Shown here: positions 1 through 14,832 of the stretch, one piece after another | How positions within the stretch are numbered: the stretch's first letter is position 1 | How the letters are laid out: each line of letters opens with the position of its first letter | Source of the DNA: a virus | Lineage: Duplodnaviria; Heunggongvirae; Uroviricota; Caudoviricetes | Virus record (IMG/VR): IMGVR_UViG_2703719369_000026 | Strand: one strand, 5' to 3' | Length of the DNA stretch: 14,832 bases | Notes under the pieces: model-generated | Databases searched by the model: none | Seen by the model: only the letters and a program-made list of their open reading frames with translations | Told to the model about the DNA's origin: nothing | Translations under genes and position numbers: made by a program

Positions 1-1002
1 TTACCCTCTATTGTCAAAAGGGTTCAATTCAACAGCAGCCTCTAAATGACCTGGAGCAAAATGCGCATAACGCATAGTCATTTTTATATCGCTATGCCCC
101 AGTATTTTTTGCAACACAAGAATATTTCCACCCCGCATCATAAAATGACTGGCAAACGTGTGACGTAGCACATGAGTTAATTGCCCATCAGGAAGCTCGA
201 TCTTCGCTCTCTTAATTGCAGCGTCAAAAGCCTCATAACATGGTGAAAATAGCGCTCCTCGTTTTTTAGGAAGCATAGCTTGCAATTGAGGTGAAATCGG
301 TACAGTGCGGTTCTTCTTTCCTTTAGTTTTAACAAATGTGATTCGACCGGGCAGTACTTGAGATTGCTTTAATCCTTCTGCTTCACTCCACCGAGCACCA
401 GTCGCAAGCCCAATACGGACAACAACCCCCAAATCTTTATTCCGTGACTCATCACACGCAATCAGAAGGCGTTCAATCTCATCTACATACAGAAACGCCA
501 GTTCCTTTTCTTCCTCACGAAACTTGCGAATACCAGTCAGGGGGTTTTCACCAGACCACTCCCCAAGGCGCTTCAGTTCGGCAAAAACAGCATGTAGATA
601 TGACTGCTCGCGATTAACGGTTGCTTCACTAAGTTTTTTCTTCCCCTTGGGATTCCATTCTCCTGATAGCCTTCTTTCCCGATAAGTAGCAAACATATTT
701 TTGTCAAACTGAGAAGCAAATGGATCTCCCAGCCTGGAACAAATCGCCTCAAGTTTGACTTTGCGCTCTGCACCAGAGGACAAGGTTTTACCGTACATCT
801 CAAACCAACGAGCAATCAACTCAGAAAGACGAGGACCAGAACCATCTTGAAACTCGTCTCCAACTCTACTATTCATTAAACGGCGCTCATAAGAGAGCGC
901 CTCACTTTTTGTCGCAAACTGTTTACGAATGCGTTTTCCCGATGCCCCGTAGGGATAACATTCACAAAGCCATTTACCTGATGGAATCTTACGAACCGAC
1001 AT
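1..1002 (-). CDS. int: Tyrosine-type site-specific integrase (phage integrase family)
   Basis: Complete 333-aa ORF with the stop at window positions 1-3. The C-terminal catalytic region carries the tyrosine-recombinase signature (HVLRHTFASH ... LGHSDIKMTMRYAHF, i.e. the R/H/R/Y residues). Its ATG lies 5 nt downstream of the preceding gene's stop on the same strand, so it is probably co-transcribed. Confidence 0.9.
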   Translation of the reverse strand: MSVRKIPSGKWLCECYPYGASGKRIRKQFATKSEALSYERRLMNSRVGDEFQDGSGPRLSELIARWFEMYGKTLSSGAERKVKLEAICSRLGDPFASQFDKNMFATYRERRLSGEWNPKGKKKLSEATVNREQSYLHAVFAELKRLGEWSGENPLTGIRKFREEEKELAFLYVDEIERLLIACDESRNKDLGVVVRIGLATGARWSEAEGLKQSQVLPGRITFVKTKGKKNRTVPISPQLQAMLPKKRGALFSPCYEAFDAAIKRAKIELPDGQLTHVLRHTFASHFMMRGGNILVLQKILGHSDIKMTMRYAHFAPGHLEAAVELNPFDNRG

Positions 1003-1007
1003 TTTAG

Positions 1008-1355
1008 TTACTTATCACATAAATCAAATGCAGCCTTAGTGACATCCCCCAGACTCTTTTTTAACCCTGGGGCGGCATCATTATCTAGCCAAAATGGATT
1101 ATTGTTATCTAACGGTAACGCACCAAATGTTTTACCTTTTATTCGAGCCAAACCTGTAAGTGCATATAACTTATTATCGTCAAAATTCATCACATAAGGA
1201 TTACCATCAAGACACTGTAATTGAACCTCATCAGTATTAAATGGCCATACCCCATTGAAACTCTCACGTTCAATAGTTTTAAAAGGCATTGCGACGGCGG
1301 AAAAAGAAAACATAGATAAAAAAGTAACTAATAGTTGAACCTTTTTTACTTTCAT
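1008..1355 (-). CDS. Small secreted/periplasmic protein, possibly DUF2511/YebY-like
   Basis: 115 aa with a typical N-terminal signal peptide (MKVKKVQLLVTFLSMFSFSAVA) and two cysteines (QCLDG ... DLCDK) that could form a disulfide. GAGGT ribosome-binding site about 9 nt upstream. The family assignment is from memory of the YebY pattern and is not verified. Confidence 0.55.
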   Translation of the reverse strand: MKVKKVQLLVTFLSMFSFSAVAMPFKTIERESFNGVWPFNTDEVQLQCLDGNPYVMNFDDNKLYALTGLARIKGKTFGALPLDNNNPFWLDNDAAPGLKKSLGDVTKAAFDLCDK

Positions 1356-1384
1356 ATCATTACCTCAATTTAGCTCAAGTAAGA

Positions 1385-2035
1385 TTACAAATTAAAAAAC
1401 GCCCTAGAAATGACACCGCCTACCAAAACCCCTACGCAGATAAAGAATATTATTTCTTTTGGATAAAGTCGGATTAATTCTGAAGCACGAAGTCGGACTT
1501 CTGGTAAGGTCGAACTCTCTATGTGGCTTGATGCCGATTGTTGCTCTAACCACGACAATGCAGACTGTAACTGAGAACGAGTAAGATCGTTTAAACGTCC
1601 TGTACCGAAATTGATATGGCAATACCGCAGAAGTTTTTGTCGAAGTCCACAGTCTTCACTGTTACGTAGTAATAAACTTACAAGAGCCTTACAGGCATCA
1701 TGATCTTTACATCGCTCAAGCATTGCATGCAGAAAACTCTCCGCTGTTTTATATTGATTTACTGTCATATCATCAATACCAGCTACACCAATCTCCGCAT
1801 GTACTTTTTGCCAAATAATAAACGCTTCAGTATTGCTAGCTTCTGCAATAGCAGCAACCAAGCTATTTAGCTCCTTACGCTGAGCCTTAAGCAAAGGGCG
1901 ATCGTCATCATCATTATTCGAAGGGATTGCGATATTGACGGTATGAGAACCATCATATCGCTCTATCTGAATATTCTTTTCGTGAAAATCACGCCCAGCA
2001 ACGCGATTGTTTGAACCGTTTGAGTTGACGGCCAT
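1385..2035 (-). CDS. Hypothetical tail-anchored membrane protein (single C-terminal TM helix)
   Basis: 216 aa. The soluble N-terminal part includes a poly-Asp stretch (NNDDDDR), and the extreme C-terminus is about 20 hydrophobic residues (IIFFICVGVLVGGVISRAFF). Strong GGGAGGTG ribosome-binding site immediately upstream. The N-terminus repeats a motif found at the C-terminus of the upstream HTH protein. Confidence 0.6.
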   Translation of the reverse strand: MAVNSNGSNNRVAGRDFHEKNIQIERYDGSHTVNIAIPSNNDDDDRPLLKAQRKELNSLVAAIAEASNTEAFIIWQKVHAEIGVAGIDDMTVNQYKTAESFLHAMLERCKDHDACKALVSLLLRNSEDCGLRQKLLRYCHINFGTGRLNDLTRSQLQSALSWLEQQSASSHIESSTLPEVRLRASELIRLYPKEIIFFICVGVLVGGVISRAFFNL

Positions 2036-2050
2036 GTCACCTCCCTACTA

Positions 2051-2455
2051 TCACCTACCCTTAGTTTCGTTATAGTCACGACCAGCGATACGGTTATTAC
2101 CACCAGAAATATTTAACTCACGTCCTGATGGCTGAGTTTCCTTTTCACTGATCGCACCTTTTAAAGCCCCAATCACCGCGTTTTTCACATCTAACGAAGC
2201 TGCTCGAAAGCGAGTAATCAATTCCTGCTCATCATCGTTATAAGTTTCAGGTGAGTGAATTCCCAACACAACATACTGAACATCAAGGCCAAAACGAGAC
2301 AGCGCTGCCAAATACGCAGCATCAGGAAAGCTATCTCCTTTCTCATATCTAAGCTGAGTTAGCTTTTTGACTCCACCAATGTCGCTCATGGCAACTTGAC
2401 TAAGTCCCAATCTTTCCCTTTCCTCACGCAACCGCCGACCAATATCATTTTTCAT
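2051..2455 (-). CDS. XRE-family (Cro/CI-type) helix-turn-helix transcriptional regulator, candidate immunity repressor
   Basis: 134 aa. The N-terminal 65 residues fit the HTH_XRE pattern (IGRRLREERERLGLSQVAMSDIGGVKKLTQLRYEKG). It is first in the leftward operon and transcribed divergently from the rightward early genes, matching the position of P2 C or 186 cI. Confidence 0.8.
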   Translation of the reverse strand: MKNDIGRRLREERERLGLSQVAMSDIGGVKKLTQLRYEKGDSFPDAAYLAALSRFGLDVQYVVLGIHSPETYNDDEQELITRFRAASLDVKNAVIGALKGAISEKETQPSGRELNISGGNNRIAGRDYNETKGR

Positions 2456-2464
2456 ACAAAAACC

Positions 2465-2488
2465 TTGACAGGTATCTTTTTTGATACC
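2465..2488. promoter_or_regulatory. Candidate operator/promoter: TTGACA hexamer followed by a perfect inverted repeat GGTATC-TTTTTT-GATACC
   Basis: Read directly from the sequence: TTGACA at 2465-2470, GGTATC at 2471-2476, a T6 spacer, GATACC at 2483-2488. It lies in the 75-bp divergent region between the XRE repressor gene and the rightward genes. The -10 element and strand assignment are not resolved. Confidence 0.4.
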
Positions 2489-2530
2489 AAAATGATTTCA
2501 CGAGCTATTAGATGATCACAATATACCACT

Positions 2531-2737
2531 ATGAAACAAGTTCTTCACGATACCAGATCACGCATTCCGCGTAACACCGCCACAGGTCCAAGACTGGCAC
2601 TTCGGCTGTCCCTCGAGGAGCGAGCCGTCATTGATGAAATGGCAGCTAAAGAACAACGCTCATCCTCTAACATGGCGCGCATGATCTCCCTTCGCGGCCT
2701 AGAGCTAACCCAGAAAGAACAAAACAAATCTTCCTGA
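2531..2737 (+). CDS. Putative ribbon-helix-helix DNA-binding protein
   Basis: 68 aa with an RHH-like beta-strand plus two helices (RLALRLSLEERAVIDEMAAKEQRSSSNMARMI). No clear Shine-Dalgarno sequence, so it may be leaderless or weakly translated. Confidence 0.4.
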   Translation: MKQVLHDTRSRIPRNTATGPRLALRLSLEERAVIDEMAAKEQRSSSNMARMISLRGLELTQKEQNKSS

Positions 2738-2753
2738 TCAGGAGGCTAGTGGG

Positions 2754-2957
2754 ATGTCAGGTATAACCATCAATATCAATGTGAATGCCCCCTATGTATC
2801 CCTGCAGAAATATGCAGAGATAACAGGTATCCCTCTTAATACATGCAAAAAGATGTTGGCTGACGGTCGAATTATTATCCGCCCCAAACGCGCCAAAATG
2901 GAAAAGCCTGAAGTAAACCTTGTGGCGATGTTAAAAGACGCTTTGGCTAACAGCTAA
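2754..2957 (+). CDS. Putative Cox/Apl/Xis-like small HTH protein (excisionase or early regulator)
   Basis: 67 aa. AGGAGG ribosome-binding site 8 nt upstream. The motif YVSLQKYAEITGIPLNTCKKMLADGRI resembles the excisionase-type HTH. Its position, first clear rightward gene opposite the repressor, matches cox/apl. Confidence 0.5.
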   Translation: MSGITININVNAPYVSLQKYAEITGIPLNTCKKMLADGRIIIRPKRAKMEKPEVNLVAMLKDALANS

Positions 2958-2978
2958 AACAATGAACAGAGCACCATC

Positions 2979-3329
2979 ATGAAAAAAAACGCTAATAATC
3001 CATACTCCAAATTTCGTAATGGCGTAGAACGCCATGTACACCACGTCGCTACCAGTGCATCACGTAGTAACAGTCGCTATAACCTGAACGAGACGCATGC
3101 AACACCGGATGGCCACGCTGTAAAACAAATCGGCGAACATGCCTGGCTGATTGAGAAAGCTGGAATCGTGGTCCACAAATGCCCACGCAATCCGTTTACC
3201 GGGAACCGCATTTTTGCATTGAACTGCGGCGACAATCACTTCGGGCAGGATTTCACATTATACGAAGCACTTCGCACGGTTGATCGTCTGCTTCGCGGGC
3301 AAAGTTTTATTAAACAGGCTGATTTATAA
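2979..3329 (+). CDS. Hypothetical early-region protein
   Basis: 116-aa ORF in the rightward gene chain; no recognisable domain. Confidence 0.45.
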   Translation: MKKNANNPYSKFRNGVERHVHHVATSASRSNSRYNLNETHATPDGHAVKQIGEHAWLIEKAGIVVHKCPRNPFTGNRIFALNCGDNHFGQDFTLYEALRTVDRLLRGQSFIKQADL

Positions 3330-3339
3330 CAGGTGCTTT

Positions 3340-3618
3340 ATGACCAAAGAGCATGCACAAGGTGTATTTATCCGTTTTATTGATTTTCGCGGTGAACTGT
3401 TATTACGCGCATCAGCCATTGACGGAATTGTTCCATCCGAAAAAAACGCAGCTACTTACGTTTATCTGAACGGTACGCGCCTGACTGTGGAGCTTCCGTA
3501 CCAGACCGTACGAGAAATCATTAGCGAAGCTGAAAAGGCTCGTCAGGTTAATGGCGATGAACCCTATATCGAAATTATTTGTATGGATTCAGAAGCTGAA
3601 ATTCAGAAAGCAGATTAA
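3340..3618 (+). CDS. Hypothetical protein
   Basis: 92 aa starting at the ATG at 3340, which has an AGGTG ribosome-binding site. The longer 3280 start in the ORF track would overlap the previous gene by about 50 nt. Confidence 0.5.
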   Translation: MTKEHAQGVFIRFIDFRGELLLRASAIDGIVPSEKNAATYVYLNGTRLTVELPYQTVREIISEAEKARQVNGDEPYIEIICMDSEAEIQKAD

Positions 3619-3629
3619 AGGGCGTTGCG

Positions 3630-3872
3630 ATGGGCAAAGAATATAAAACTCTCATTAACAAAGCACCTGAACGATTTTATTTTCGCTTAAGTGCATCAGG
3701 CGCTCATGCTGAACGTGCAGCCCGTGACTCATTGACCAGGGCAATCCGGAGTTTGTATGACGTTGCTTTTTACGCTGATGATCTGGATGCACTTAACGAA
3801 CTTTCCGAGCTGATCTGTGCCGCAGAATGCGGGGAACACATTGAACCATATAAGCTGGGGAATATCGCATGA
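3630..3872 (+). CDS. Hypothetical protein
   Basis: 80-aa ORF. Its stop overlaps the next start (ATGA at 3869-3872). Confidence 0.5.
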   Translation: MGKEYKTLINKAPERFYFRLSASGAHAERAARDSLTRAIRSLYDVAFYADDLDALNELSELICAAECGEHIEPYKLGNIA

Positions 3873-3982
3873 GTATATTTATCTCATGGCTTGTTCTGAT
3901 TATTTCGGTGGCCTGCGCCATTGGGATTATGCGAATTATTCATTCAGTAAAAAAGATTGAACGCTTTTTCACTGACAAATAA
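3869..3982 (+). CDS. Putative 37-aa single-TM membrane peptide
   Basis: Not in the ORF track because it is under 60 aa. Translated by hand as MSIFISWLVLIISVACAIGIMRIIHSVKKIERFFTDK: a hydrophobic helix followed by a basic tail. Its start is coupled to the upstream stop (ATGA). Confidence 0.35.
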   Translation: MSIFISWLVLIISVACAIGIMRIIHSVKKIERFFTDK

Positions 3983-4074
3983 CAGCTTAAACAGAACACC
4001 AGATTAAACCCGAAAACCTGAAAACTATCCGCATTCGCGGAGGTATTCGCACACGTAAATAACGGAGATATAAA

Positions 4075-4491
4075 ATGAACGCAAAAGAAAAAAATATTAT
4101 CAATACATTAAAAATAGTGTCAGCAGAGCAAGACAAGCTGTCCAGGGCAGCCCAGAAAGATAATCAACATATGGCAGCGCTTTACGCACTGACCATCGCA
4201 ATAGCCACCCCTGAAGCAGCCAAAGTTATTGAGGAACAGAGCAAAGAAATCGACACTCTTAAAACACAGTCAACAGTTGCAGCCATGAATCCGTCCAGCA
4301 TTGGACGCTGCATTTATATTCTTGGTTCAGCAATGATGCTGCAATACACCATTATTGCCGAACTGCACGGCAAATACCTGATAACGCCTTACCACACAAA
4401 AGAGTCAGAGCTTCTGACAAATCTCCGCCTGATAGAACGCTCTCAAGCTGTATTCATTGATGACGCGCAACGTGCCGTATTTAACGCATAG
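4075..4491 (+). CDS. Hypothetical protein
   Basis: 138 aa with a GGAG ribosome-binding site; no recognisable domain. Confidence 0.5.
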   Translation: MNAKEKNIINTLKIVSAEQDKLSRAAQKDNQHMAALYALTIAIATPEAAKVIEEQSKEIDTLKTQSTVAAMNPSSIGRCIYILGSAMMLQYTIIAELHGKYLITPYHTKESELLTNLRLIERSQAVFIDDAQRAVFNA

Positions 4492-4514
4492 GGTTACTGG
4501 ACAAAGGGGGCGCA

Positions 4515-4718
4515 ATGGCAATTAAGCATTTTCCCGTCGTTCGCTTTACCTCCAGAGGGCGCGAATACGAGGTCGACGAACGCCTGATTACCACTATCGA
4601 CAAACATCGTTCGGAAAAGGATGCACACCACATCTACCTCACTGACGGCACTTACTTCTGCGCCACCAACGTGGCGCGAGTAAATCTTATCCGACAGGTA
4701 CAGGAGCCACGCAGATGA
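4515..4718 (+). CDS. Hypothetical small protein
   Basis: 67 aa with a strong AAAGGGGG ribosome-binding site. First gene of a three-gene translationally coupled chain. Confidence 0.5.
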   Translation: MAIKHFPVVRFTSRGREYEVDERLITTIDKHRSEKDAHHIYLTDGTYFCATNVARVNLIRQVQEPRR

Positions 4719-4981
4719 CCATTCTGGACTACATCGCTACTCATCCGGGGTGTAGCGGCGGAGAGATCGCCGCAGCACTGAATACCCCAACCACAGCCAT
4801 TAATGCTGAGTTACGCCGACTTTGGCGCGGCGGCTTAGTCATCAGAACAAACCGCAGCACAGGTGGTCGCGCTCGCAAAACAGGAGGCCAGGCTTCTTAC
4901 CACGTAAACCCGATGCCGTTCGGGTGTAGCAATCCACTTACTCACATGTTTAACCAGCTACTGAAGGAAGCCAGAGCATGA
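4715..4981 (+). CDS. Putative winged-helix DNA-binding protein
   Basis: 88 aa. AGGAG ribosome-binding site and ATGA overlap with the upstream gene. The N-terminal segment (DYIATHPGCSGGEIAAALNTPTTAINAELRRLWRGGLV) resembles a wHTH. Confidence 0.5.
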   Translation: MTILDYIATHPGCSGGEIAAALNTPTTAINAELRRLWRGGLVIRTNRSTGGRARKTGGQASYHVNPMPFGCSNPLTHMFNQLLKEARA

Positions 4982-5277
4982 GCACCATCAACCACCAGAA
5001 GCTACGCGAACTGGCATTTGCCCTGCAACGAATGGCAACGCCTCAAAAATTACTGGCATTTCGCGCAATGCTCTCGCCGTCTGCTGTGCTGGCACTGCTG
5101 GATCAGCTGGAGCACGCCAGAACCACGGCTCCTGCCATTCGCCTCACGCTCCATCATGAAATCGCTGATTTCTGCGCAACGCTGGGGGCACCTGGCGAAC
5201 CGGAAACGCCGGAAGCAATGCAGCAAGAGCTGCTGCAACGCATCGATAACGTTTTTGATTTTTTTCTGAACCAGTAA
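4978..5277 (+). CDS. Hypothetical protein
   Basis: 99-aa, helix-rich ORF with an ATGA overlap to the upstream gene. Confidence 0.5.
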   Translation: MSTINHQKLRELAFALQRMATPQKLLAFRAMLSPSAVLALLDQLEHARTTAPAIRLTLHHEIADFCATLGAPGEPETPEAMQQELLQRIDNVFDFFLNQ

Positions 5278-5399
5278 GAAACCAGAACATGCACACACAA
5301 AAAAACCGCTTGCCATGCCGCAATCGGTCAGGTTACATTTCCGCTGCACCTCATAAAACGGGTGCCGGGATTCTCAACCCGATACAGAGCAAAGCGCAT

Positions 5400-5420
5400 A
5401 ACCGCGCTAGCGGTTTTTTT
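5400..5420 (+). terminator. Candidate intrinsic terminator (hairpin plus T-run)
   Basis: AACCGC-GCTA-GCGGTT stem-loop at 5400-5415 followed by TTTTTTT through 5420. It lies about 125 nt downstream of the 4978-5277 gene. Confidence 0.45.
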
Positions 5421-5599
5421 GTGCGTACTGTATTGCCACGTCTTTTTCGCGTCAGAATTATGGCGGGGCGTACGGGGCCGACTTCGGTCGGGCCGGATTC
5501 TTTGCTCTCCGGTGTTGAGAACCCTGTACGTCTCGCCACCCCGAGATTCTCAACTCTGGATGGTGAGTTATTTCTATCACCGAGCAAAGAGGCCACACC

Positions 5600-5830
5600 A
5601 TGGCAGACCGCAAACAGCACCGCGCTATCGCGGAGCGTCGTCACATCCAGACTGAAATCAACCGCAGACTTTCCCGCGCATCACGCGTCGCGCAAATCAT
5701 GCACATCAATATGCTGCATGAGCGCAGCCACGCACTATCAAACATTTATTCCGCCTCTGTTTTCAGCTATCTGGCGGATGATCTGCACGAGTTTCAACAG
5801 CTCATCCAGCAGCAAAACAAACTCCATTAA
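5600..5830 (+). CDS. Hypothetical small basic protein
   Basis: 76 aa with an AAAGAGG ribosome-binding site 7 nt upstream. It is preferred over the overlapping 205-aa ORF at 5289..5906, which crosses the hairpin structures. Confidence 0.4.
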   Translation: MADRKQHRAIAERRHIQTEINRRLSRASRVAQIMHINMLHERSHALSNIYSASVFSYLADDLHEFQQLIQQQNKLH

Positions 5831-5902
5831 TTCCTGTTCCGGGCCTTTCCTGCACCTTGCGGCGGGAGGCCTTCGCACATCTGTAACAAGAGGATTGCCG
5901 CA

Positions 5903-6268
5903 ATGATTCTCGCCAACGACTTTCTTGAATACCTGCTCAACACAGAACGTGATCTTGCCGCTCGCGTGCGTGATCGTTATGACATGTACCTGAAATCCCT
6001 GCCTGTACCGCAGCTCGCTGACGGAAAGATTGTTATTGATGGTCGCTACATGATTGACAGCCACGAGGGAAATTACAGGCTTTACCGCATTGAAGGTGGC
6101 ACCCCGTCCGTTATTGGCATTTACCAGCGCCCATCCTCTGCAATCGTCGATGTGATTGCCGACAGCATCCGCATCACACATCGCCATGCCGACACAGAAG
6201 ACACCGTGCTGGAAATTCAGCGGCTGGCTACAGCCTGCCGCGACACCCTGAATGGCATGACGAAGTAA
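5903..6268 (+). CDS. Hypothetical protein immediately upstream of the replication initiator
   Basis: 121 aa with an AGAGGA ribosome-binding site. It sits where P2 carries gene B, but no similarity to B was recognised. Confidence 0.5.
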   Translation: MILANDFLEYLLNTERDLAARVRDRYDMYLKSLPVPQLADGKIVIDGRYMIDSHEGNYRLYRIEGGTPSVIGIYQRPSSAIVDVIADSIRITHRHADTEDTVLEIQRLATACRDTLNGMTK

Positions 6269-6274
6269 ATCACT

Positions 6275-9097
6275 ATGACGGCAGAGTACATCAGGGACTG
6301 GCAACAACCGCGCCACGCAGTGGGGCGTGAAGGAACGGGGATCCCCGCTCCTGAATCCGCGCTTTCCTCCTGGCTGGATGCCTACCGGGTAGAGAACGAG
6401 CGCCGCCAGGAAATGGCTGATGCGGCGTTCTCCGCAACGCCGCTGGGCAACCTGATTAATAAAAGCCTGGACGCACAGGAAAAACAGGACAAAACCATCA
6501 CACTGGCAGGAGACGCCAGAAAACAGGCACGCGGTGCGGTGGATGAAGCCATGGCCTCGCTGCGCCTGCTGCCGTCCTATCTGCGCGATCCGCTTATTCG
6601 CCACCTCTCCTTCCTGCGCAAAAAACAGGAAGCCGATCGTCAGAAAGGCAAAAAGAGCTGGCAGGCTGAACGCTACGCGCGCGGAAACCTGCGCAAAATA
6701 TTCGAACGTCTGGAGCGCACCGATCACCGCTGGCTGACACAGGGTTATCGCTCCCTTGCCGGACGCGAACGCCTGGACGATTTGCTTTACCTGCCGCAGC
6801 TCAACAAACACCAGATACAGACGCTGGCCACCATGACGGCGGCGATGTTCAGCAGCACCTTCGAAAAACTCTGCGATGGCTTTGGCGCGACCGATGGCGA
6901 ACTGACCATGGATGTAACGCTGAAGGCGTATCAGATGCTGGCCCGCATGGCGTTACACCTGCACGCCATGCCTCCACATTATGACGCACTGACAACAGAC
7001 AAAGACCGGAGGAACGAACCGGACACGGAGCTGCTGCCGGGCGCAATCCTTCGCCTGACCTGTGCGGAATGGTGGAAACGCAAACTGTGGCTGTTACGTT
7101 GCGAGTGGAGAGAAGAACAACTCCGCGCCGCCTGTCTGGTTTCCAGAAAAACATCGCCCTATCTGAGCCAGGACGCGTTAAGCGAGTTTCGCGCACAGCG
7201 CGAGAAAACACGCGATTTCCTGAAAAGTTTCATGCTGGAAAACGAAGACGGGTTCACGATTGATCTCGAGACAGTGTATTACGCGGGAGTAAGTAACCCG
7301 GTTCACCGTAAGGCAGAAATGATGGCCACCATGAAGGGGCTGGAACTTCTGGCCGAAGCCCGTGGCGACAAAGCGGTGTTTCTGACTGTCACCTGCCCGT
7401 CAAAATACCACGCTACAACAGAGAACGGTCATCCGAATCCCAAATGGAACGGGGCCACCATGCGCGACTCCAGCGATTACCTGGTTAACACGTTTTTTGC
7501 GGCGGTCCGCAAGAAACTGAACCGCGACGGCCTGCGCTGGTATGGCATCCGCACGGTGGAGCCTCACCATGACGGCACCGTGCACTGGCATATGATGGTC
7601 TTTGCTCATCCGGAAGAAATCGACACCATTGTGTCCCACACCCGCGATATTGCCATTCAGGAAGATCGTCACGAGCTGGGCGATGATATTACTCCGCGCT
7701 TTAAGGCGGAGTATGTCGACGGCTCAAAAGGCACGCCAACCAGCTACATCGCCACCTACATCGGAAAAAACCTGGACAGCCGCGCCGTGGATGGCATCGA
7801 CCCGAAAACAGGCAAACCACGCGTTGACCACGAAACCGGAAAATCAATGACCGAGAGCGTGGAACGCGCCATTGGCTGGGCGCGCCTTCACCGGGTCCGC
7901 CAGTTCCAGTTCTTTGGCATCCCCTCCCGTCAGGTGTGGCGTGAACTGCGTCGCCTTGCCAGCCAGATGGCACGCAACCCGGAAGGCCCGCAACGGCTGA
8001 AGGATGACGCAATGGATGCGGTTCTTGCTGCCGCTGATGCCGGATGTTTTACCACCTACATTGAGAAACAGGGAGGCGTACTTGTTCCACGCAAGGACTA
8101 CCTGATTCGCACCGCCTACGACCTCGCAGATGAGCTGAACGATTACGGCGAACAGAGCGTACAGATTTACGGGATCTGGTCACCACTCATCGGGGAATCC
8201 TCCCGTGTGTGCACGCACCCGGATAACTGGAAGCTGGTAAGACGTAAACCGGGAGTAGAAGACAGCGCCCGCGAAAATGGTTTTGACCTTCAGGGCGGCC
8301 CTGCCGCCCCTTGGACTCGTGGCAATAACTGTCCCCGTGTACAGGAAACGGACAACAACGGGACAGAACAGCCGGAAGAACGGCCAGCACCGTGGCCGCA
8401 GCTTCCTGACGGCGTTGACGTGAACGAATGGATGCGCTCACTGAAACGGCACGAACGCCGGGCGCTGATGCGTTCGCTTCGTGACAAACAGGCAAAAAAC
8501 AGCAGTGATGAAATGCAGAGCTGGACACAGAGCCGCAAACAGCAGCGGCCTTTGCCTGATAACCACGAATTACTCGCTAAAGAATGGCGGGAGTCTGCTG
8601 AATCTCTCGGCCTGCATATCGGTGAACAACAGATGCAGCACCTGTTACGGGGCGGCAGTCTGTACGTTGACGGCAGCATCATTGCACCGCAGGGATTTGA
8701 AATTGTACGCAAACCGGATACCCGCCCGGACAGCCGAATCACGCAGCTCTGGCAGCGCCTGAGCCGTAATCATGGCGTAAGCAGCACGGAGATCCGCCAT
8801 AACCCGGTCGCCAGCTATCTGGCACAGCTGGGGGCATCAGACCCTGAAGCCGCCGCACGCCTGGCATCCACACTTCAGCAGGACCAGAACACCATGAAAA
8901 CACCCGTTACCGTGCTTTCTGACATGCTGCGCGCCATCCGCGACGCAGAGCACGCACAGAGAATCAGTGAAACCACTGAACGCGCCAGCCGCAAAGCAGA
9001 CCTGCTGCGGGGTGGCCTGACCAGTGGAAACAAAAAACAGACAGAAACGGGACTCACAAATCCCGTAAATGAGCAAAAAACGCGCCGCGATATATGA
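6275..9097 (+). CDS. Rolling-circle replication initiator/endonuclease, phiX174/P2 gpA superfamily
   Basis: 940 aa. HUH motif VHWHMMVF encoded at about 7580-7603, and a paired-tyrosine active site SYIATYIGK (YxxxY) with the tyrosine codons at 7745-7747 and 7757-7759. It is about 180 aa longer at the C-terminus than the roughly 760-aa P2 A protein. Confidence 0.88.
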   Translation: MTAEYIRDWQQPRHAVGREGTGIPAPESALSSWLDAYRVENERRQEMADAAFSATPLGNLINKSLDAQEKQDKTITLAGDARKQARGAVDEAMASLRLLPSYLRDPLIRHLSFLRKKQEADRQKGKKSWQAERYARGNLRKIFERLERTDHRWLTQGYRSLAGRERLDDLLYLPQLNKHQIQTLATMTAAMFSSTFEKLCDGFGATDGELTMDVTLKAYQMLARMALHLHAMPPHYDALTTDKDRRNEPDTELLPGAILRLTCAEWWKRKLWLLRCEWREEQLRAACLVSRKTSPYLSQDALSEFRAQREKTRDFLKSFMLENEDGFTIDLETVYYAGVSNPVHRKAEMMATMKGLELLAEARGDKAVFLTVTCPSKYHATTENGHPNPKWNGATMRDSSDYLVNTFFAAVRKKLNRDGLRWYGIRTVEPHHDGTVHWHMMVFAHPEEIDTIVSHTRDIAIQEDRHELGDDITPRFKAEYVDGSKGTPTSYIATYIGKNLDSRAVDGIDPKTGKPRVDHETGKSMTESVERAIGWARLHRVRQFQFFGIPSRQVWRELRRLASQMARNPEGPQRLKDDAMDAVLAAADAGCFTTYIEKQGGVLVPRKDYLIRTAYDLADELNDYGEQSVQIYGIWSPLIGESSRVCTHPDNWKLVRRKPGVEDSARENGFDLQGGPAAPWTRGNNCPRVQETDNNGTEQPEERPAPWPQLPDGVDVNEWMRSLKRHERRALMRSLRDKQAKNSSDEMQSWTQSRKQQRPLPDNHELLAKEWRESAESLGLHIGEQQMQHLLRGGSLYVDGSIIAPQGFEIVRKPDTRPDSRITQLWQRLSRNHGVSSTEIRHNPVASYLAQLGASDPEAAARLASTLQQDQNTMKTPVTVLSDMLRAIRDAEHAQRISETTERASRKADLLRGGLTSGNKKQTETGLTNPVNEQKTRRDI

Positions 9098-9173
9098 AGC
9101 GCGCACAAAACAGGCAAAAGCGGGATTTAAAAATCCTGTAACCGATTAATTAATCAACATAAGGAAAAGCGAC

Positions 9174-10133
9174 ATGAAAATTTGTATCGACGACGGCTCC
9201 ACCAACATCAAGCTGGCATGGACTGAGAACGGCGAACGCCGCAACGCCATCAGCCCGAACAGCTTCAAGTCGGAATGGTCTGCGCCATTCGGTGGCACGC
9301 AGCCCGCGAACTACATGCTTGATGGCGTGCGCTATGGTTTTGATCCGGTCAGCGATCGCTTTGTCCAGACGACCGACACGCAATACCAGTACAGCGATGT
9401 GAATGTAATTGCCATTCATCACGCGCTGGTCAAATCAGGCATCACACCACAGGAAGTGGATGTGGTTGTCACCCTGCCACTGAGCGAGTATTTCGATACA
9501 AACGCACAGCCGGACATGGCCAACATCAACCGCAAAAAAGCGAACGTCATGCGCCCGGTGGAGTACCAGAACGGCGAAGCATTCACTATCCGTAACGTAC
9601 GGGTTATGCCTGAATCCATTCCTGCTGGCTTTAAGGCACTGGCTGACATGAGTCCGTTTGAATCCCTGCTGATTGTGGATTTGGGCGGAACCACGCTGGA
9701 TGTGGCAAAGGTTCAGGGGCAACTGGCAGGTATCAGCCAGGTGTTTTGCGATCCACACGTAGGCGTTTCTCTGATGGCCGATGCCGTACTGTCGGTGATG
9801 GCCACTAACGGTATGCGCACCAGTCACCACATCGCCAATACCATTATCGAACATCGCCATGATGAAGCCTGGCTGCGCCAGCACATCCACAATGACGCGC
9901 ATTACGCCAGCCTGATGGCGGTTATTCGTGAAAAGGAAGAAACACTGAAACAACGCGTGATCCGCGCGCTGGCGGTTTTTTCGGGTTACGGGCGGGTGAT
10001 GGTTGTCGGTGGCGGGGCGGAGATTGTGGCAACCGCTATCCGCGAAGCCTGCGGAGTTAATGCGACTTTCATCGCGGACGGGGTGCCACAGTTTGCTCTG
10101 GTTAATGGGTTGTACGCAATGAACAAGGAGTAA
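9174..10133 (+). CDS. parM: ParM/StbA actin-like segregation ATPase (type II partition)
   Basis: 319 aa, alignable by eye along its full length to R1 ParM. Actin-fold motifs are present: IDDGSTNIKL (phosphate-1), VDLGGTTLD (phosphate-2) and VVGGGAE. AAGGA ribosome-binding site. Confidence 0.92.
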   Translation: MKICIDDGSTNIKLAWTENGERRNAISPNSFKSEWSAPFGGTQPANYMLDGVRYGFDPVSDRFVQTTDTQYQYSDVNVIAIHHALVKSGITPQEVDVVVTLPLSEYFDTNAQPDMANINRKKANVMRPVEYQNGEAFTIRNVRVMPESIPAGFKALADMSPFESLLIVDLGGTTLDVAKVQGQLAGISQVFCDPHVGVSLMADAVLSVMATNGMRTSHHIANTIIEHRHDEAWLRQHIHNDAHYASLMAVIREKEETLKQRVIRALAVFSGYGRVMVVGGGAEIVATAIREACGVNATFIADGVPQFALVNGLYAMNKE

Positions 10134-10137
10134 ACCA

Positions 10138-10452
10138 ATGACGACACCAACCAGACGGATAAGTTTCTATCTGAAGCCCGCCGCCGTCAAGAGTGAACAG
10201 GAGGCGTGCAATTACCTCGATAGCCTGCCAGCCTCCGAACGCAGCCGCGCGCAACGCGCGGCCTTTCTGGCTGGGCTAGCACTCATAAAGCGCAACCCAG
10301 CATTTGCCTACTGGATGGCCGAATGGCCAGAGGACAACCTCCCCTTCAATACCGTTAGCATCAAGGAAACATACCAGGCTAATCAGCCTAGCGGAGTTGA
10401 ATGCAATTTTTATAAAATAAAAAAGAATATTCAGACCTTATTCCCAGAATAA
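10138..10452 (+). CDS. parR: ParR/StbB centromere-binding adaptor
   Basis: 104 aa starting 4 nt after the parM stop. The N-terminal RHH region (ISFYLKPAAV ... LDSLPASERSRAQRAAFLAGLAL) matches the R1 ParR pattern. Confidence 0.85.
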   Translation: MTTPTRRISFYLKPAAVKSEQEACNYLDSLPASERSRAQRAAFLAGLALIKRNPAFAYWMAEWPEDNLPFNTVSIKETYQANQPSGVECNFYKIKKNIQTLFPE

Positions 10453-10471
10453 TCTGATAATTGTATGTGAA

Positions 10472-10926
<455 letters not shown>

Positions 10927-10979
10927 TAAAGTTATGTTCCTGACGTATGTATTCGTCCCGCAGGAATCAACCAACTGAT

Positions 10980-11369
10980 TTATCTGAATTTATCATGCCC
11001 CTCAACTCTGATTTTATTCATCTTGTTTACCGAATCGGGTATATCTGATAACTGTCCCGATAAGACTTTTTGTTTCGCCAGCATAATCTCTTTTTCAAGC
11101 TTTTGAAGTTCTTTTATATAGTCATTCTTCCCTTCTTCATCAGCCGGTGAAATGCTCTCAGGAAGACGCTTCATTGACTCATCTACAGCATCATCCATTC
11201 TGTCAAGAGCTTCAAGAAGCTCCTTTTTATCCATTGATGACTGAAGTACACTCATATTCCTTGCAAGAACTTGCATGCTTTCATCAAGTTCTTCTGCCAC
11301 TGTAATCCCCCCACACAAAAAATATAATGCCATACCACAGCTGATTATAACTTTATTGCTTTTCTGCAT
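10980..11369 (-). CDS. cybC: Cytochrome b562 family protein (periplasmic, four-helix-bundle haem protein)
   Basis: 129 aa with a signal peptide. A Met near the mature N-terminus (AEELDESMQVL) and a C-terminal His (EGHDKFR) parallel the Met and His haem ligands of E. coli cytochrome b562. AAGGAG ribosome-binding site. Lies 43 nt downstream of the catalase-peroxidase gene. Confidence 0.75.
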   Translation of the reverse strand: MQKSNKVIISCGMALYFLCGGITVAEELDESMQVLARNMSVLQSSMDKKELLEALDRMDDAVDESMKRLPESISPADEEGKNDYIKELQKLEKEIMLAKQKVLSGQLSDIPDSVNKMNKIRVEGHDKFR

Positions 11370-11381
11370 AATTTCTCCTTC

Positions 11382-11404
11382 ATGAGGGAGGTGCCCTCCC
11401 TCAT
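11382..11404 (-). other. Intercistronic stem-loop between the catalase-peroxidase and cytochrome b562 genes
   Basis: Perfect 9-10 bp inverted repeat (A)TGAGGGAGG-tgc-CCTCCCTCA(T). It is not followed by a U-run on the coding (minus) strand, so it is unlikely to be an efficient intrinsic terminator. Confidence 0.5.
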
Positions 11405-11412
11405 CAGTTTTA

Positions 11413-13638
<2,226 letters not shown>

Positions 13639-13799
13639 TTAAGGGAAATTCGCATGTTGTATACAAAAGTCAACTTTATTGATGCAACAGGATATACCTA
13701 TTGCTGGGATAGATACTACAGACAAAAAATACTAAGGGGTTCCAAGCCGCAACTGACGATGCCGTTGAGTTCTGCGCAGACCTGAATATTCCCTTCTTT

Positions 13800-13985
13800 G
13801 TGGATGTCAGAAACAAAAAGCTGGTCTTCTGGTTTGTACGTGTTGATGACGAAGGGTATCCTGAAATAGCCCGCTGCACGGAGCGGGAGTTTGCGACCAT
13901 TCTTGCCGGTATCAGCGCCGGCGGCATGTACTGCCCGGAGTGTGGCACGGTTCACTGGCCGGACGGAGTTCCCCCGCCCTTCTGA
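13800..13985 (+). CDS. Hypothetical small ORF, possibly an IS91-family accessory ORF remnant
   Basis: 61 aa from a GTG start. The open frame extends upstream to 13713 without an ATG. Its stop overlaps the ATG of the IS91-like transposase (TGATG). Confidence 0.3.
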   Translation: MDVRNKKLVFWFVRVDDEGYPEIARCTEREFATILAGISAGGMYCPECGTVHWPDGVPPPF

Positions 13986-14420
13986 TGCTTCCCCGTTTTG
14001 CCGACATTTTTCAGCAGGGAAACCGCTGGCTTAACTGGCTGGAGAAACAACCGGAAGGTTCAGTGCGTCCGGTAGTCATTGAGTCTGTGACAAAAATCAT
14101 GGCCTGCGGGACCACGCTGATGGGGTACACACAGTGGTGCTGTTCATCTCCGGACTGCAGCCACATAAAAAAGGTCTGCTTCCGGTGTAAAAGTCGCTCC
14201 TGCCCGCACTGCGGAGTGAAGGCTGGCGCACAGTGGATACAGTATCTGCTGAGTCTGGTTCCCGACTGTCCGTGGCAGCATATTGTGTTCACACTTCCCT
14301 GCCAGTACTGGTCCCTGGTGTTCCACAACCGGTGGTTACTGGCAGAGATGAGCCGCATTGCTGCGGATGTGATACAGGAAATCTGCCGCCAGGCAGATGT
14401 GCGACTACGAACTCGAACCA
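13985..14420 (+). pseudogene. IS91-family (rolling-circle HUH-Y2) transposase, N-terminal fragment only
   Basis: N-terminal zinc-binding region typical of IS91 TnpA (VRPVVIESVTKIMACGT ... CSHIKKVCFRCKSRSCPHCG). The frame then gives way to IS3-family orfB sequence near 14420, so the catalytic HUH/Y2 domain is absent. Confidence 0.7.
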
Positions 14421-14424
14421 CAAT

Positions 14425-14832
14425 CTGCCAGTTGCGCCAAATCTGCTGAACCAGACGTTCGCTCCTGCAGCACCAAATCAGGTCTGGGTGGCGGACCTGA
14501 CGTATGTTGCCACACAGGAGGGATGGTTGTACCTCGCTGGCATCAAAGATGTTTATACGTGCGAAATTGTCGGCTACGCCATGGGAGAGCGCATGACAAA
14601 AGAGCTGACAGGTAAAGCCCTGTTTATGGCGCTCAGGAGCCAGCGCCCACCTGCCGGGCTAATCCACCACTCTGATCGAGGTTCACAGTACTGCGCATAC
14701 GATTACCGGGTCATACAGGAGCAGTTTGGTCTGAAAACATCAATGTCGCGTAAAGGTAACTGTTACGACAACGCTCCGATGGAAAGCTTCTGGGGAACGC
14801 TGAAAAATGAGAGCCTGAGCCACTATCGTTTT
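14425..14832 (+). pseudogene. IS3-family transposase orfB internal fragment, continuing beyond the window
   Basis: Hand translation in frame 1 gives NQVWVADLTYVATQEGWLYLAGIKDVY ... LIHHSDRGSQYCAYDY ... CYDNAPMESFWGTLKNE, a DDE integrase core. There is no upstream orfA or inverted repeat. The sequence differs from the IS629-like copy at 10484-10926. Confidence 0.8.

Follow-up and report, generated by a model that had tools for sequence, protein, structure and literature searches.

The stretch of DNA considered here (hereafter the window) is a 14,832-nucleotide (nt) viral sequence from IMG/VR (record IMGVR_UViG_2703719369_000026, Caudoviricetes), in which a single ATG-to-stop open reading frame (ORF) of 940 codons occupies positions 6275-9097 of the plus strand. 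We read this ORF, with a probability of about 85%, as gene A of a P88-like prophage of the P2 family, encoding an HUH two-tyrosine rolling-circle initiator whose origin of replication lies within its own coding sequence. Directly downstream are the members of a type II ParMRC partition system, i.e. parM (9174-10133, plus strand; PF06406 and PF21523, E 1e-82 and 3e-69), which encodes an actin-like protein, and parR (10138-10452, plus strand; PF10784 Plasmid_stab_B, E 8e-29), which encodes a small ParR/StbB-like adaptor. From the integrase gene to parR, gene order is collinear with that of Escherichia phage P88, a viable phage on which the synteny comparison is based (PMC5285337), and gene A has the early-operon location typical of P2-like phages (Peduoviridae).

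Identity and architecture of the gene A protein

The assignment of gene A, which the first-pass annotation had made from the letters alone, is borne out by sequence comparison. The gene is 97.3-97.6% identical at the nucleotide level to those of P88 and other Xuanwuvirus/Peduoviridae phages, and E. coli NJS001 has a copy with 100% identity, which carries the annotation 'replication endonuclease' (WP_000123463.1, in NZ_CP114132.1). Its product (gpA) gives a full-length match to the Pfam family PF05840 (Phage_GPA), residues 179-503 (6809-7783, plus strand) covering profile positions 1-321 of 321 with an E-value of 2.4e-131 and 438 bits against a curated cut-off of 31.4. It matches PHROG 91 ('nicking at origin of replication') with an E-value of 1e-274, and BLASTP aligns it with P2 A over ~750 residues (30% identity, E 2e-79). 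The initiator is thus real, ordinary, common and previously annotated, the clusters that contain it holding up to 16,881 member sequences, and the result is mainly a clean negative, i.e. a well-known P2-family initiator that is present in thousands of E. coli genomes.

The catalytic motifs, also described as intact in the first pass, are indeed so. The HUH metal-binding motif H437-W-H439 (7583-7591, plus strand), found in EPHHDGTVHWHMMVF, aligns with the HWH of P2 A, while the two-tyrosine active-site motif Y491-I-A-T-Y495 (7745-7759, plus strand) aligns with its Y450/Y454 pair. None of these residues is substituted in the alignment with the P2 and 186 A proteins, and both motifs are conserved without exception in an alignment of 33 family members whose identity ranges from 39 to 97%. 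Among close alleles, the ratio of non-synonymous to synonymous substitution rates (dN/dS) is 0.09-0.15 in the core, with a value of 0.15 for the Phage_GPA domain. The core is preceded by a variable helical module (residues 1-178; 6275-6808, plus strand), which has a dN/dS of 0.40 and is conserved at only 51-54% identity (53-54% in P0043 and P0044) in alleles with a 93-98% identical catalytic core.

An AlphaFold2 (AF2) model of the full-length protein, computed with the 33-sequence alignment as input, has a mean predicted local distance difference test score (pLDDT) of 63. It comprises a confident helical N-terminal region (residues 30-300, with pLDDT ~70-88 for the helices of the variable module from residue 30 on), a moderately confident α/β core that bears the motifs, a low-confidence linker (residues 589-706, pLDDT < 50), a small confident domain made of two helices and a three-stranded sheet (residues 760-815, pLDDT ~76-90), further helices at 820-916 (pLDDT 50-68) and a disordered C-terminal end. 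When this model was compared with the PDB using Foldseek, the top matches were all HUH nucleases (the origin-binding domain of adeno-associated virus Rep68, Helitron, parvovirus NS1 and TnpA-REP), although at this model confidence they were weak and non-significant (E 0.01-0.2, template modelling score at most 0.43), and they may be taken as compatible with an HUH fold. A sequence-profile search of the PDB with gpA returned no match.

An ORF of 357 residues that starts with GTG on the minus strand (5738-6811) runs across the 121-residue gene upstream as well as the beginning of gene A. It is most likely spurious, arising in GC-rich coding DNA opposite a gene under strong purifying selection.

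A predicted origin of replication within gene A

As judged by homology with P2 and 186, the origin can be located at 8293-8332, where a hairpin is followed by a nick motif. This agrees with the expectation, voiced in the first pass, that the nick site of such a gene would lie inside or next to it, and favours the inside. In P2, the nick is annotated within gene A at NC_001895:29892 (CCTCG|GAGTCCTGTCAATAACTGT), and in 186 it is annotated at NC_001317:28576, where it was located by similarity with P2. Both sites align to positions 8309-8332 of the window, which carry the family core pattern GGA.T..TG.CAATAACTG in the form CCTTGGACTCGTGGCAATAACTGT (plus strand). The surroundings of the nick read GCGGCatcGCCGCgcctcGGAGTCCTGTCAATAACTGT in P2, AGGGCGCttctGCGCCCTctcGGAGTTCTGTCAATAACTGT in 186 and GGGCGGCcctGCCGCCCcttGGACTCGTGGCAATAACTGT at 8293-8332 of the window. 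Since a nick between two Gs reconciles the P2 and 186 annotations, the nick is predicted to fall between G8313 and G8314, give or take one nucleotide because these annotations are one nucleotide apart in register.

By four independent lines of evidence, the constraint on this stretch acts on the DNA and not on the protein. First, in a codon alignment of 15 lineages with less than 88% protein identity, mean pairwise third-position identity in 10-codon windows peaks at 0.95 in codons 677-686 (8303-8332), against a gene mean of 0.39 (standard deviation 0.093), while the best windows over the catalytic motifs reach only ~0.6. Second, in 23 close P88-like alleles, the synonymous rate (dS) drops to 0.014 in codons 673-690 from ~0.22 in the flanking segments. 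Third, searches of blastn with a 191-bp origin-centred query and of megablast with the whole 2823-bp gene found, in the A genes of Fels-2, RE2010, Klebsiella and Yersinia phages, only an island of 43-62 bp (from 8291/8297 to 8339/8352) with 85-92% identity, the flanks being too diverged for alignment; the 43-bp island common to diverged P2-like phages (8297-8339) is 90.7% identical. Fourth, the window has a single copy of the 24-nt core and 200 shuffles had none, and neither a second origin copy nor iterons were found within the window.

Could the island instead correspond to an indispensable protein motif, APWTRGNNCP, and the real origin be located in some other place, such as between genes? 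All 33 proteins carry the peptide PWTRGNNC unchanged, and its NNC is common even to P2 and 186. However, third positions are 95% identical here, against only ~60% at the truly catalytic motifs, and dS collapses 15-fold. Moreover, the homologous P2 sequence is annotated as a mapped nick site, the peptide is disordered in the AF2 model and the adjacent hairpin covaries while the amino acids that it encodes change. We therefore hold the protein-motif explanation to be extremely unlikely. The peptide lies in the long low-confidence, probably disordered stretch of the model (residues 589-706), as would be expected of a linker whose sequence is dictated by DNA.

The core of the window is identical to the P88/Fels-2-type core (TGGACTCGTGGCAATAACTG), the commonest type sampled. 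Besides P2 (CGGAGTCCTGTC...) and 186 (CGGAGTTCTGTC...), which have core types of their own, the remaining 13 lineages of the 15-lineage set all carry the window type (with single-base variants in L038 and L042), although their gpA are only 40-87% identical to that of the window. The core type, together with the covarying hairpin and the mosaicism of gene A described below, may be of use to phage annotators and to builders of P2-type mini-replicons. An inverted repeat at 8329-8340/8355-8366 was considered as a further origin element and discarded, as it is not conserved in other lineages. Promoter and terminator signals in and around gene A did not exceed shuffle expectation.

Immediately 5' of the nick motif lies a hairpin with a perfect 7-bp stem and a 3-nt loop (GGGCGGC-cct-GCCGCCC; 8293-8309), which is the sole perfect hairpin of at least 7 bp within gene A and the minimum free energy structure on either strand. 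A scan of IMG/VR for GGANTNNTGNCAATAACTG yielded 120 loci which, together with further loci, amounted to 97 distinct origin contexts, 88 of them with enough flanking sequence. In 75 of these 88 origins, a perfect stem of at least 5 bp closes a loop of 3-6 nt and stops 2-8 nt short of the GGA, the hairpin being usually 2-5 nt from the nick motif. The corresponding frequency is 6.0% in control 31-mers from the same genes and 11% in those with a GC content of at least 0.65, which amounts to a 12-fold enrichment over control windows and an 8-fold enrichment over GC-matched ones. There are 16 distinct 5' arms, including GCGCC, GCGGC, GGCCGC, GGCGGC, AGGGCGC, AGGACGC, GGGCGAC and AGCAGC. Covariation was tested on an ungapped alignment of the 3-nt-loop class, picked by hand and made of sequences related by descent, to which nine hairpin-less origins were added. 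Double-sided changes numbered 27 cells against 10.9 expected, and the covariation score was 0.262 against 0.115 after shuffling (none of 500 shuffles reaching it) and 0.04-0.14 in slid-partner controls. This covariation of the hairpin across the family is a modest new observation.

It may be argued that the hairpin is not an origin element at all but a by-product of Gly/Ala codons or a structure acting at the mRNA level, for example as a translational pause. The stem largely consists of GGC and GCC codons for G-G-x-A-A, the hairpin is missing in ~15% of family origins and the palindrome would form equally in RNA. Such a scenario seems difficult to reconcile with the preservation of pairing across peptides as different as GGPAA, GDPVA, SSAAA, GASGS and KDASAS, with the excess of double-sided changes and with the enrichment of the hairpin within 2-8 nt of the nick motif, and we give it little credence. 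Because pairing persists while the encoded peptides vary widely, the hairpin is regarded, on these comparative grounds, as a selected DNA element.

Several points nevertheless weigh against the overall reading. The nick position, the nicked strand and the action in cis are carried over from P2 by homology, and the disagreement in register between P2 and 186 leaves the uncertainty of one nucleotide given above. About 13 of the 88 family origins have no clear hairpin, a Gly/Ala-rich linker might by itself generate some of the palindromy since GGC (Gly) and GCC (Ala) are mutual reverse complements, and hand-picking and common descent qualify the covariation test. The confidence of the AF2 models is modest (pLDDT 63 for the full-length protein and 69 for a C-terminal model discussed below) and the HUH fold matches are non-significant. 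Finally, the prophage appears truncated, so the activity of gpA may be irrelevant in this host, a point to which we return below.

A modular 3' end: mosaicism and the parM/parR cassette

The first-pass annotation had described the C-terminus as one block of some 180 extra residues, low in complexity, rich in Arg and Gln and with no obvious counterpart in P2 A. This picture needs to be revised in most respects. Since BLASTP aligns residues 77-800 with residues 42-740 of the 761 of P2 A, the 179-residue excess over P2 A is composite, made of an N-terminal insertion (~20-76), small internal insertions and a C-terminal extension of ~125-140 residues (~801/816-940). Many other family members have the N-terminal insertion, so P2 and 186 are the short ones. 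Residues 687-800 do have a counterpart, as they align with the C-terminus of P2 A through a basic ERRAL..RLR helix and the LG..LLRGG..G motif of the small conserved α/β domain that follows the origin (residues 760-815; 8552-8719, plus strand), and the absence of a counterpart holds true only from about residue 801 on. Nor is the tail of low complexity, its entropy being 3.96-4.00 bits against 4.14 for the whole protein, with no 12-residue window below 2.2 bits, and its Arg plus Gln content (17-18% against 14.7%) represents only a mild enrichment.

Downstream of the α/β domain lies a lineage-specific helical extension (residues 816-912; 8720-9010, plus strand), absent from P2 and 186, with predicted helices of pLDDT 50-79. 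A few other gpA lineages (Klebsiella L043/P0143-type and P0268) also carry residues ~808-860 (DSRITQLWQRLSRNHGVSSTEIRHNPVASYL..DPEA) at their C-termini, while residues ~861-940 are confined to P88-like gpA. An exhaustive HMMER search with the tail against 1.84 billion representatives gave 16 matches, all of them gpA proteins or fragments except three repeat proteins (P0262, P0270 and P0265). P0262 (2998 residues) was rejected as a homologue because its match sums weak matches through cadherin repeats and would pair a β-sandwich repeat with a region predicted to be helical. A word-indexed search with the tail found only gpA fragments and one 101-residue chimera. This chimera (P0022, annotated with PF15958 and encoded outside the window) ends with a 35-residue gpA-tail fragment, 80% identical (RPDSRITQLWQRLSRNHGVSSTE), and is presumably a rearrangement product. 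Domain prediction identified no known domain in the tail. Pfam gave only a sub-threshold Death-domain match for the post-origin region (E 0.022), and Foldseek found nothing with E < 1 in the PDB for a model of residues 748-940 (pLDDT 69).

The extension is nevertheless under selection, dN/dS in close alleles being 0.27 for residues 691-800 and 0.30 for residues 801-912, which indicates a real, selected polypeptide up to about residue 912. The value rises to 0.64 (with low dS) in the last 28 codons, and over its last ~25-28 codons the reading frame seems to run on into DNA that is constrained for another reason. Judging by recombination breakpoints, dN/dS and the disorder predicted by AF2, these last ~28 codons (9011-9097, plus strand) are physically part of the parM/parR cassette. 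The extra C-terminus is a lineage-specific, swappable add-on.

Segment-wise identities reveal a mosaicism that is centred on the origin. Compared with the window, P0122 and P0123 rise from 48-51% identity ahead of the origin to 96-100% past it, while P0054, P0070, P0086 and L032 fall from 93-97% to 22-55%. At the DNA level, L205 and L207, whose early regions are 186/Fels-2-like, show 40-60% identity to the window as far as nt 8304 and 100% from nt 8305 through parM, whereas L032 is 90-100% identical up to ~nt 8335 and ~45% beyond, which places crossovers at both edges of the origin core. In addition, the N-terminal 178 residues are exchanged independently of the core. A second set of breakpoints marks the left edge of the parM/parR block. 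L024 and L026, which lack parMR, diverge at ~8990-9010, L206 rejoins at ~9030 (96-100% identical) and L030 does so at ~8750. This origin-centred mosaicism is a modest new observation. Because the joints between the modules of gene A lie at the origin and at the edge of parMR, its C-terminal third is unfit for phylogeny or for inferring nuclease specificity.

Homologous recombination at the conserved island is the simplest reading of this mosaicism. A more active role for the initiator can be imagined, in which its HUH cleave-and-rejoin chemistry would transfer strands from the origin of one P2-like genome to that of a co-resident one. The nick site would then be the preferred crossover, the downstream module of gene A would be swapped together with cargo such as parMR, and the covarying hairpin would be the recognition element enabling the exchange. 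We consider this rather unlikely.

Two 38-nt repeats flank the end of gene A. Each contains a palindrome of the form ACGGGA-N8-TCCCGT. The first (9031-9068) lies inside codons 919-931, and the second (9104-9141), 79% identical to it, lies in the gene A-parM intergenic region; they are candidates for a parC or an operator. Across loci, parM is 96-99% identical and parR only ~50-70%, and both repeats are conserved even though ParR alleles diverge to that extent, a combination that speaks neither clearly for nor clearly against a role as parC.

This arrangement raises the idea that the C-terminal extension couples the initiator to ParM/ParR, either by tethering copies for partition or by regulating parMR, as part of a plasmid-like mode of maintenance. 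All the loci in which the 140-residue tail is complete have parM 77 nt downstream. In L030, identity to the window is 90-96% from ~nt 8750 through parM and 31-88% over the remainder of gene A, and one of the two palindromic repeats upstream of parM lies within the final codons of gene A. However, tail residues 801-912 are kept in L024 and L026, which lack parMR, L206 combines parMR with another tail and has an additional ORF between the two, and linkage alone accounts for the co-occurrence of tail and parM. Besides, the presence of an integrase makes chromosomal lysogeny the default, and the tail has no domain or fold homology according to Pfam, HMMER and Foldseek against the PDB. Coupling of this kind strikes us as improbable. 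The extra ORF of L206 (5128-5595 in that locus) encodes 155 residues without a Pfam match and separates parM from a gene A whose 876-residue gpA has a different post-origin module.

State of the prophage and neighbouring features

Phage-like sequence stops at ~10484, ~30 nt past parR, at an IS3/katP junction. Positions 10485-14832 match the katP region of pO157-type plasmids with 100% identity and contain an IS3 fragment with an ALIL pseudoknot (10751-10867, minus strand), a cytochrome b562 gene (10980-11369, minus strand) and katP (11413-13623, minus strand). A masked run of 44 Ns (10696-10739) lies inside the remnant of the IS3 transposase gene. The junction at ~10485 is absent from 5,426 complete E. 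coli genomes, and it is either a rearrangement mediated by an insertion sequence (IS) or an assembly join across an IS copy. The copy in NJS001 (L204) is 100% identical to positions 1-10924 of the window and lies next to yecA; there, an IS follows parR, then come tail genes, and since head genes are missing this prophage is a deleted remnant. The sequence in question, NZ_CP114132.1 (438 kb), is labelled 'plasmid pNJS001-2' yet carries the chromosomal genes araF, ftnA/B, tyrP and yecA.

These findings bear on the earlier statement that the protein is probably active. The protein itself looks intact, in accord with that statement, but the prophage arm that encodes it ends just past parR and an identical copy sits in a deleted remnant, so that an intact initiator may reside within a defective element. 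In its strong form, this amounts to saying that gene A is an intact-looking relic in a prophage rendered defective by IS-mediated truncation after parR and incapable of a productive phage cycle in its host. The abrupt transition to an IS3 fragment and a plasmid-type katP segment, the absence of the junction from complete genomes and the missing head genes of the NJS001 copy would all be consistent with this. Conversely, the ORF retains its full length and has 97% identity to its counterpart in the inducible phage P88, gene A alleles are under purifying selection, the junction could be an assembly join (the N-run lies close by) and a defective prophage might still be able to nick and replicate in situ. 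On balance, we see the relic scenario as a serious contender that falls somewhat short of even odds.

Upstream of gene A, Rfam identifies two RNAs lying back to back, an isrK Hfq-binding small RNA (5346-5420, plus strand; 63 bits) and a C4 antisense RNA (5456-5543, plus strand; 78.5 bits). Both are just upstream of, or overlap, an ORF at 5600-5830 that is annotated as a 'derepression protein' in P88 and NJS001. The arrangement points to an antirepressor module of the P1/P7 kind, under antisense control, here in a P2-like phage.

Proposed mechanism and comparison with known systems

The nicking and rolling-circle biology of P2 (Liu et al. 1993, 1994; Odegrip and Haggard-Ljungquist 2001, according to the passages citing them in PMC3986222 and PMC5694545) and the cis-preferential action of P2 A (Liu et al. 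1993, according to the passage citing it in PMC5694545) provide the framework for a putative mechanism. By analogy with P2, gpA would nick one strand at TTG|GAC, between 8313 and 8314, and become linked to the DNA by a 5'-phosphotyrosyl bond via Y491 or Y495. The free 3'-OH would prime unidirectional rolling-circle synthesis, the second tyrosine would serve for termination and re-initiation, and the protein would prefer the DNA that encodes it. To this scheme we would add that the hairpin may act as a recognition or extrusion element presenting the nick motif as single-stranded DNA, much as in the hairpin-then-nic layout of relaxases, and that the origin-encoded peptide AAPWTRGNNCP may be a disordered linker whose sequence is set by the DNA. 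Residues 688-940 would form an accessory module that is dispensable for catalysis and swapped independently of the nuclease by crossover at the origin core. In order, this module would consist of the α/β domain shared with P2, the helical extension of the P88 lineage and ~25 codons reaching into the upstream control region of parM/parR.

How does this system compare with others? TrwC/TraI-type relaxases act on nic sites in which an inverted repeat immediately 5' of the nick is recognized as a hairpin by the HUH enzyme. The likeness to the gene A origin would be one of layout only, as relaxases belong to another protein family, serve transfer and not vegetative replication, and have no sequence relationship with gpA. 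The gene A protein of phiX174, a small single-stranded DNA phage, has an HUH motif and two YxxxY-like tyrosines, nicks one strand, forms a 5' covalent link and drives rolling-circle replication, so that by analogy gpA would fall in the same mechanistic class. The phiX174 origin also has AATAAC a few nt 3' of the nick, which can be taken as a lead only, and we know of no description of an adjacent hairpin at that origin.

Closer parallels are found among P2-like phages. Phage 186 is organized in the same way, a 7-bp hairpin (AGGGCGC/GCGCCCT) preceding CGGAGTTCTGTCAATAACTGT by 3 nt, although its A protein (694 residues, 34% identity) has a very short post-origin region and its hairpin a 4-nt loop. 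P2 A shares with gpA the Pfam family, the HUH motif, the Y450/Y454-type pair, an origin in the 3' third of the gene with the core GG-A..T..TG.CAATAACTG closely preceded by a GC hairpin, and, past the origin, the ERRAL and LG..LLRGG motifs. It differs by its 30% protein identity and its length of 761 residues, without the N-terminal insertion and residues 801-940. The two cores differ at 4 of 21 positions (CGGAGTCCTGTC in P2 and TGGACTCGTGGC in the window), the hairpin stem is 5 bp in P2 against 7 bp in the window, and P2 has no parMR downstream. The nearest relative is the replication endonuclease gp16 of P88 (YP_009113059; Xuanwuvirus, Peduoviridae). It differs by a few percent in sequence and by the context of its gene, since the prophage arm of the window ends at IS3/katP and the parR allele of P88 is only ~53% identical. 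Nevertheless, gp16 likewise has 940 residues (97.3% nucleotide identity), its gene is preceded by a 121-residue ORF and followed by parM/parR, and its origin core and hairpin are identical to those of the window.

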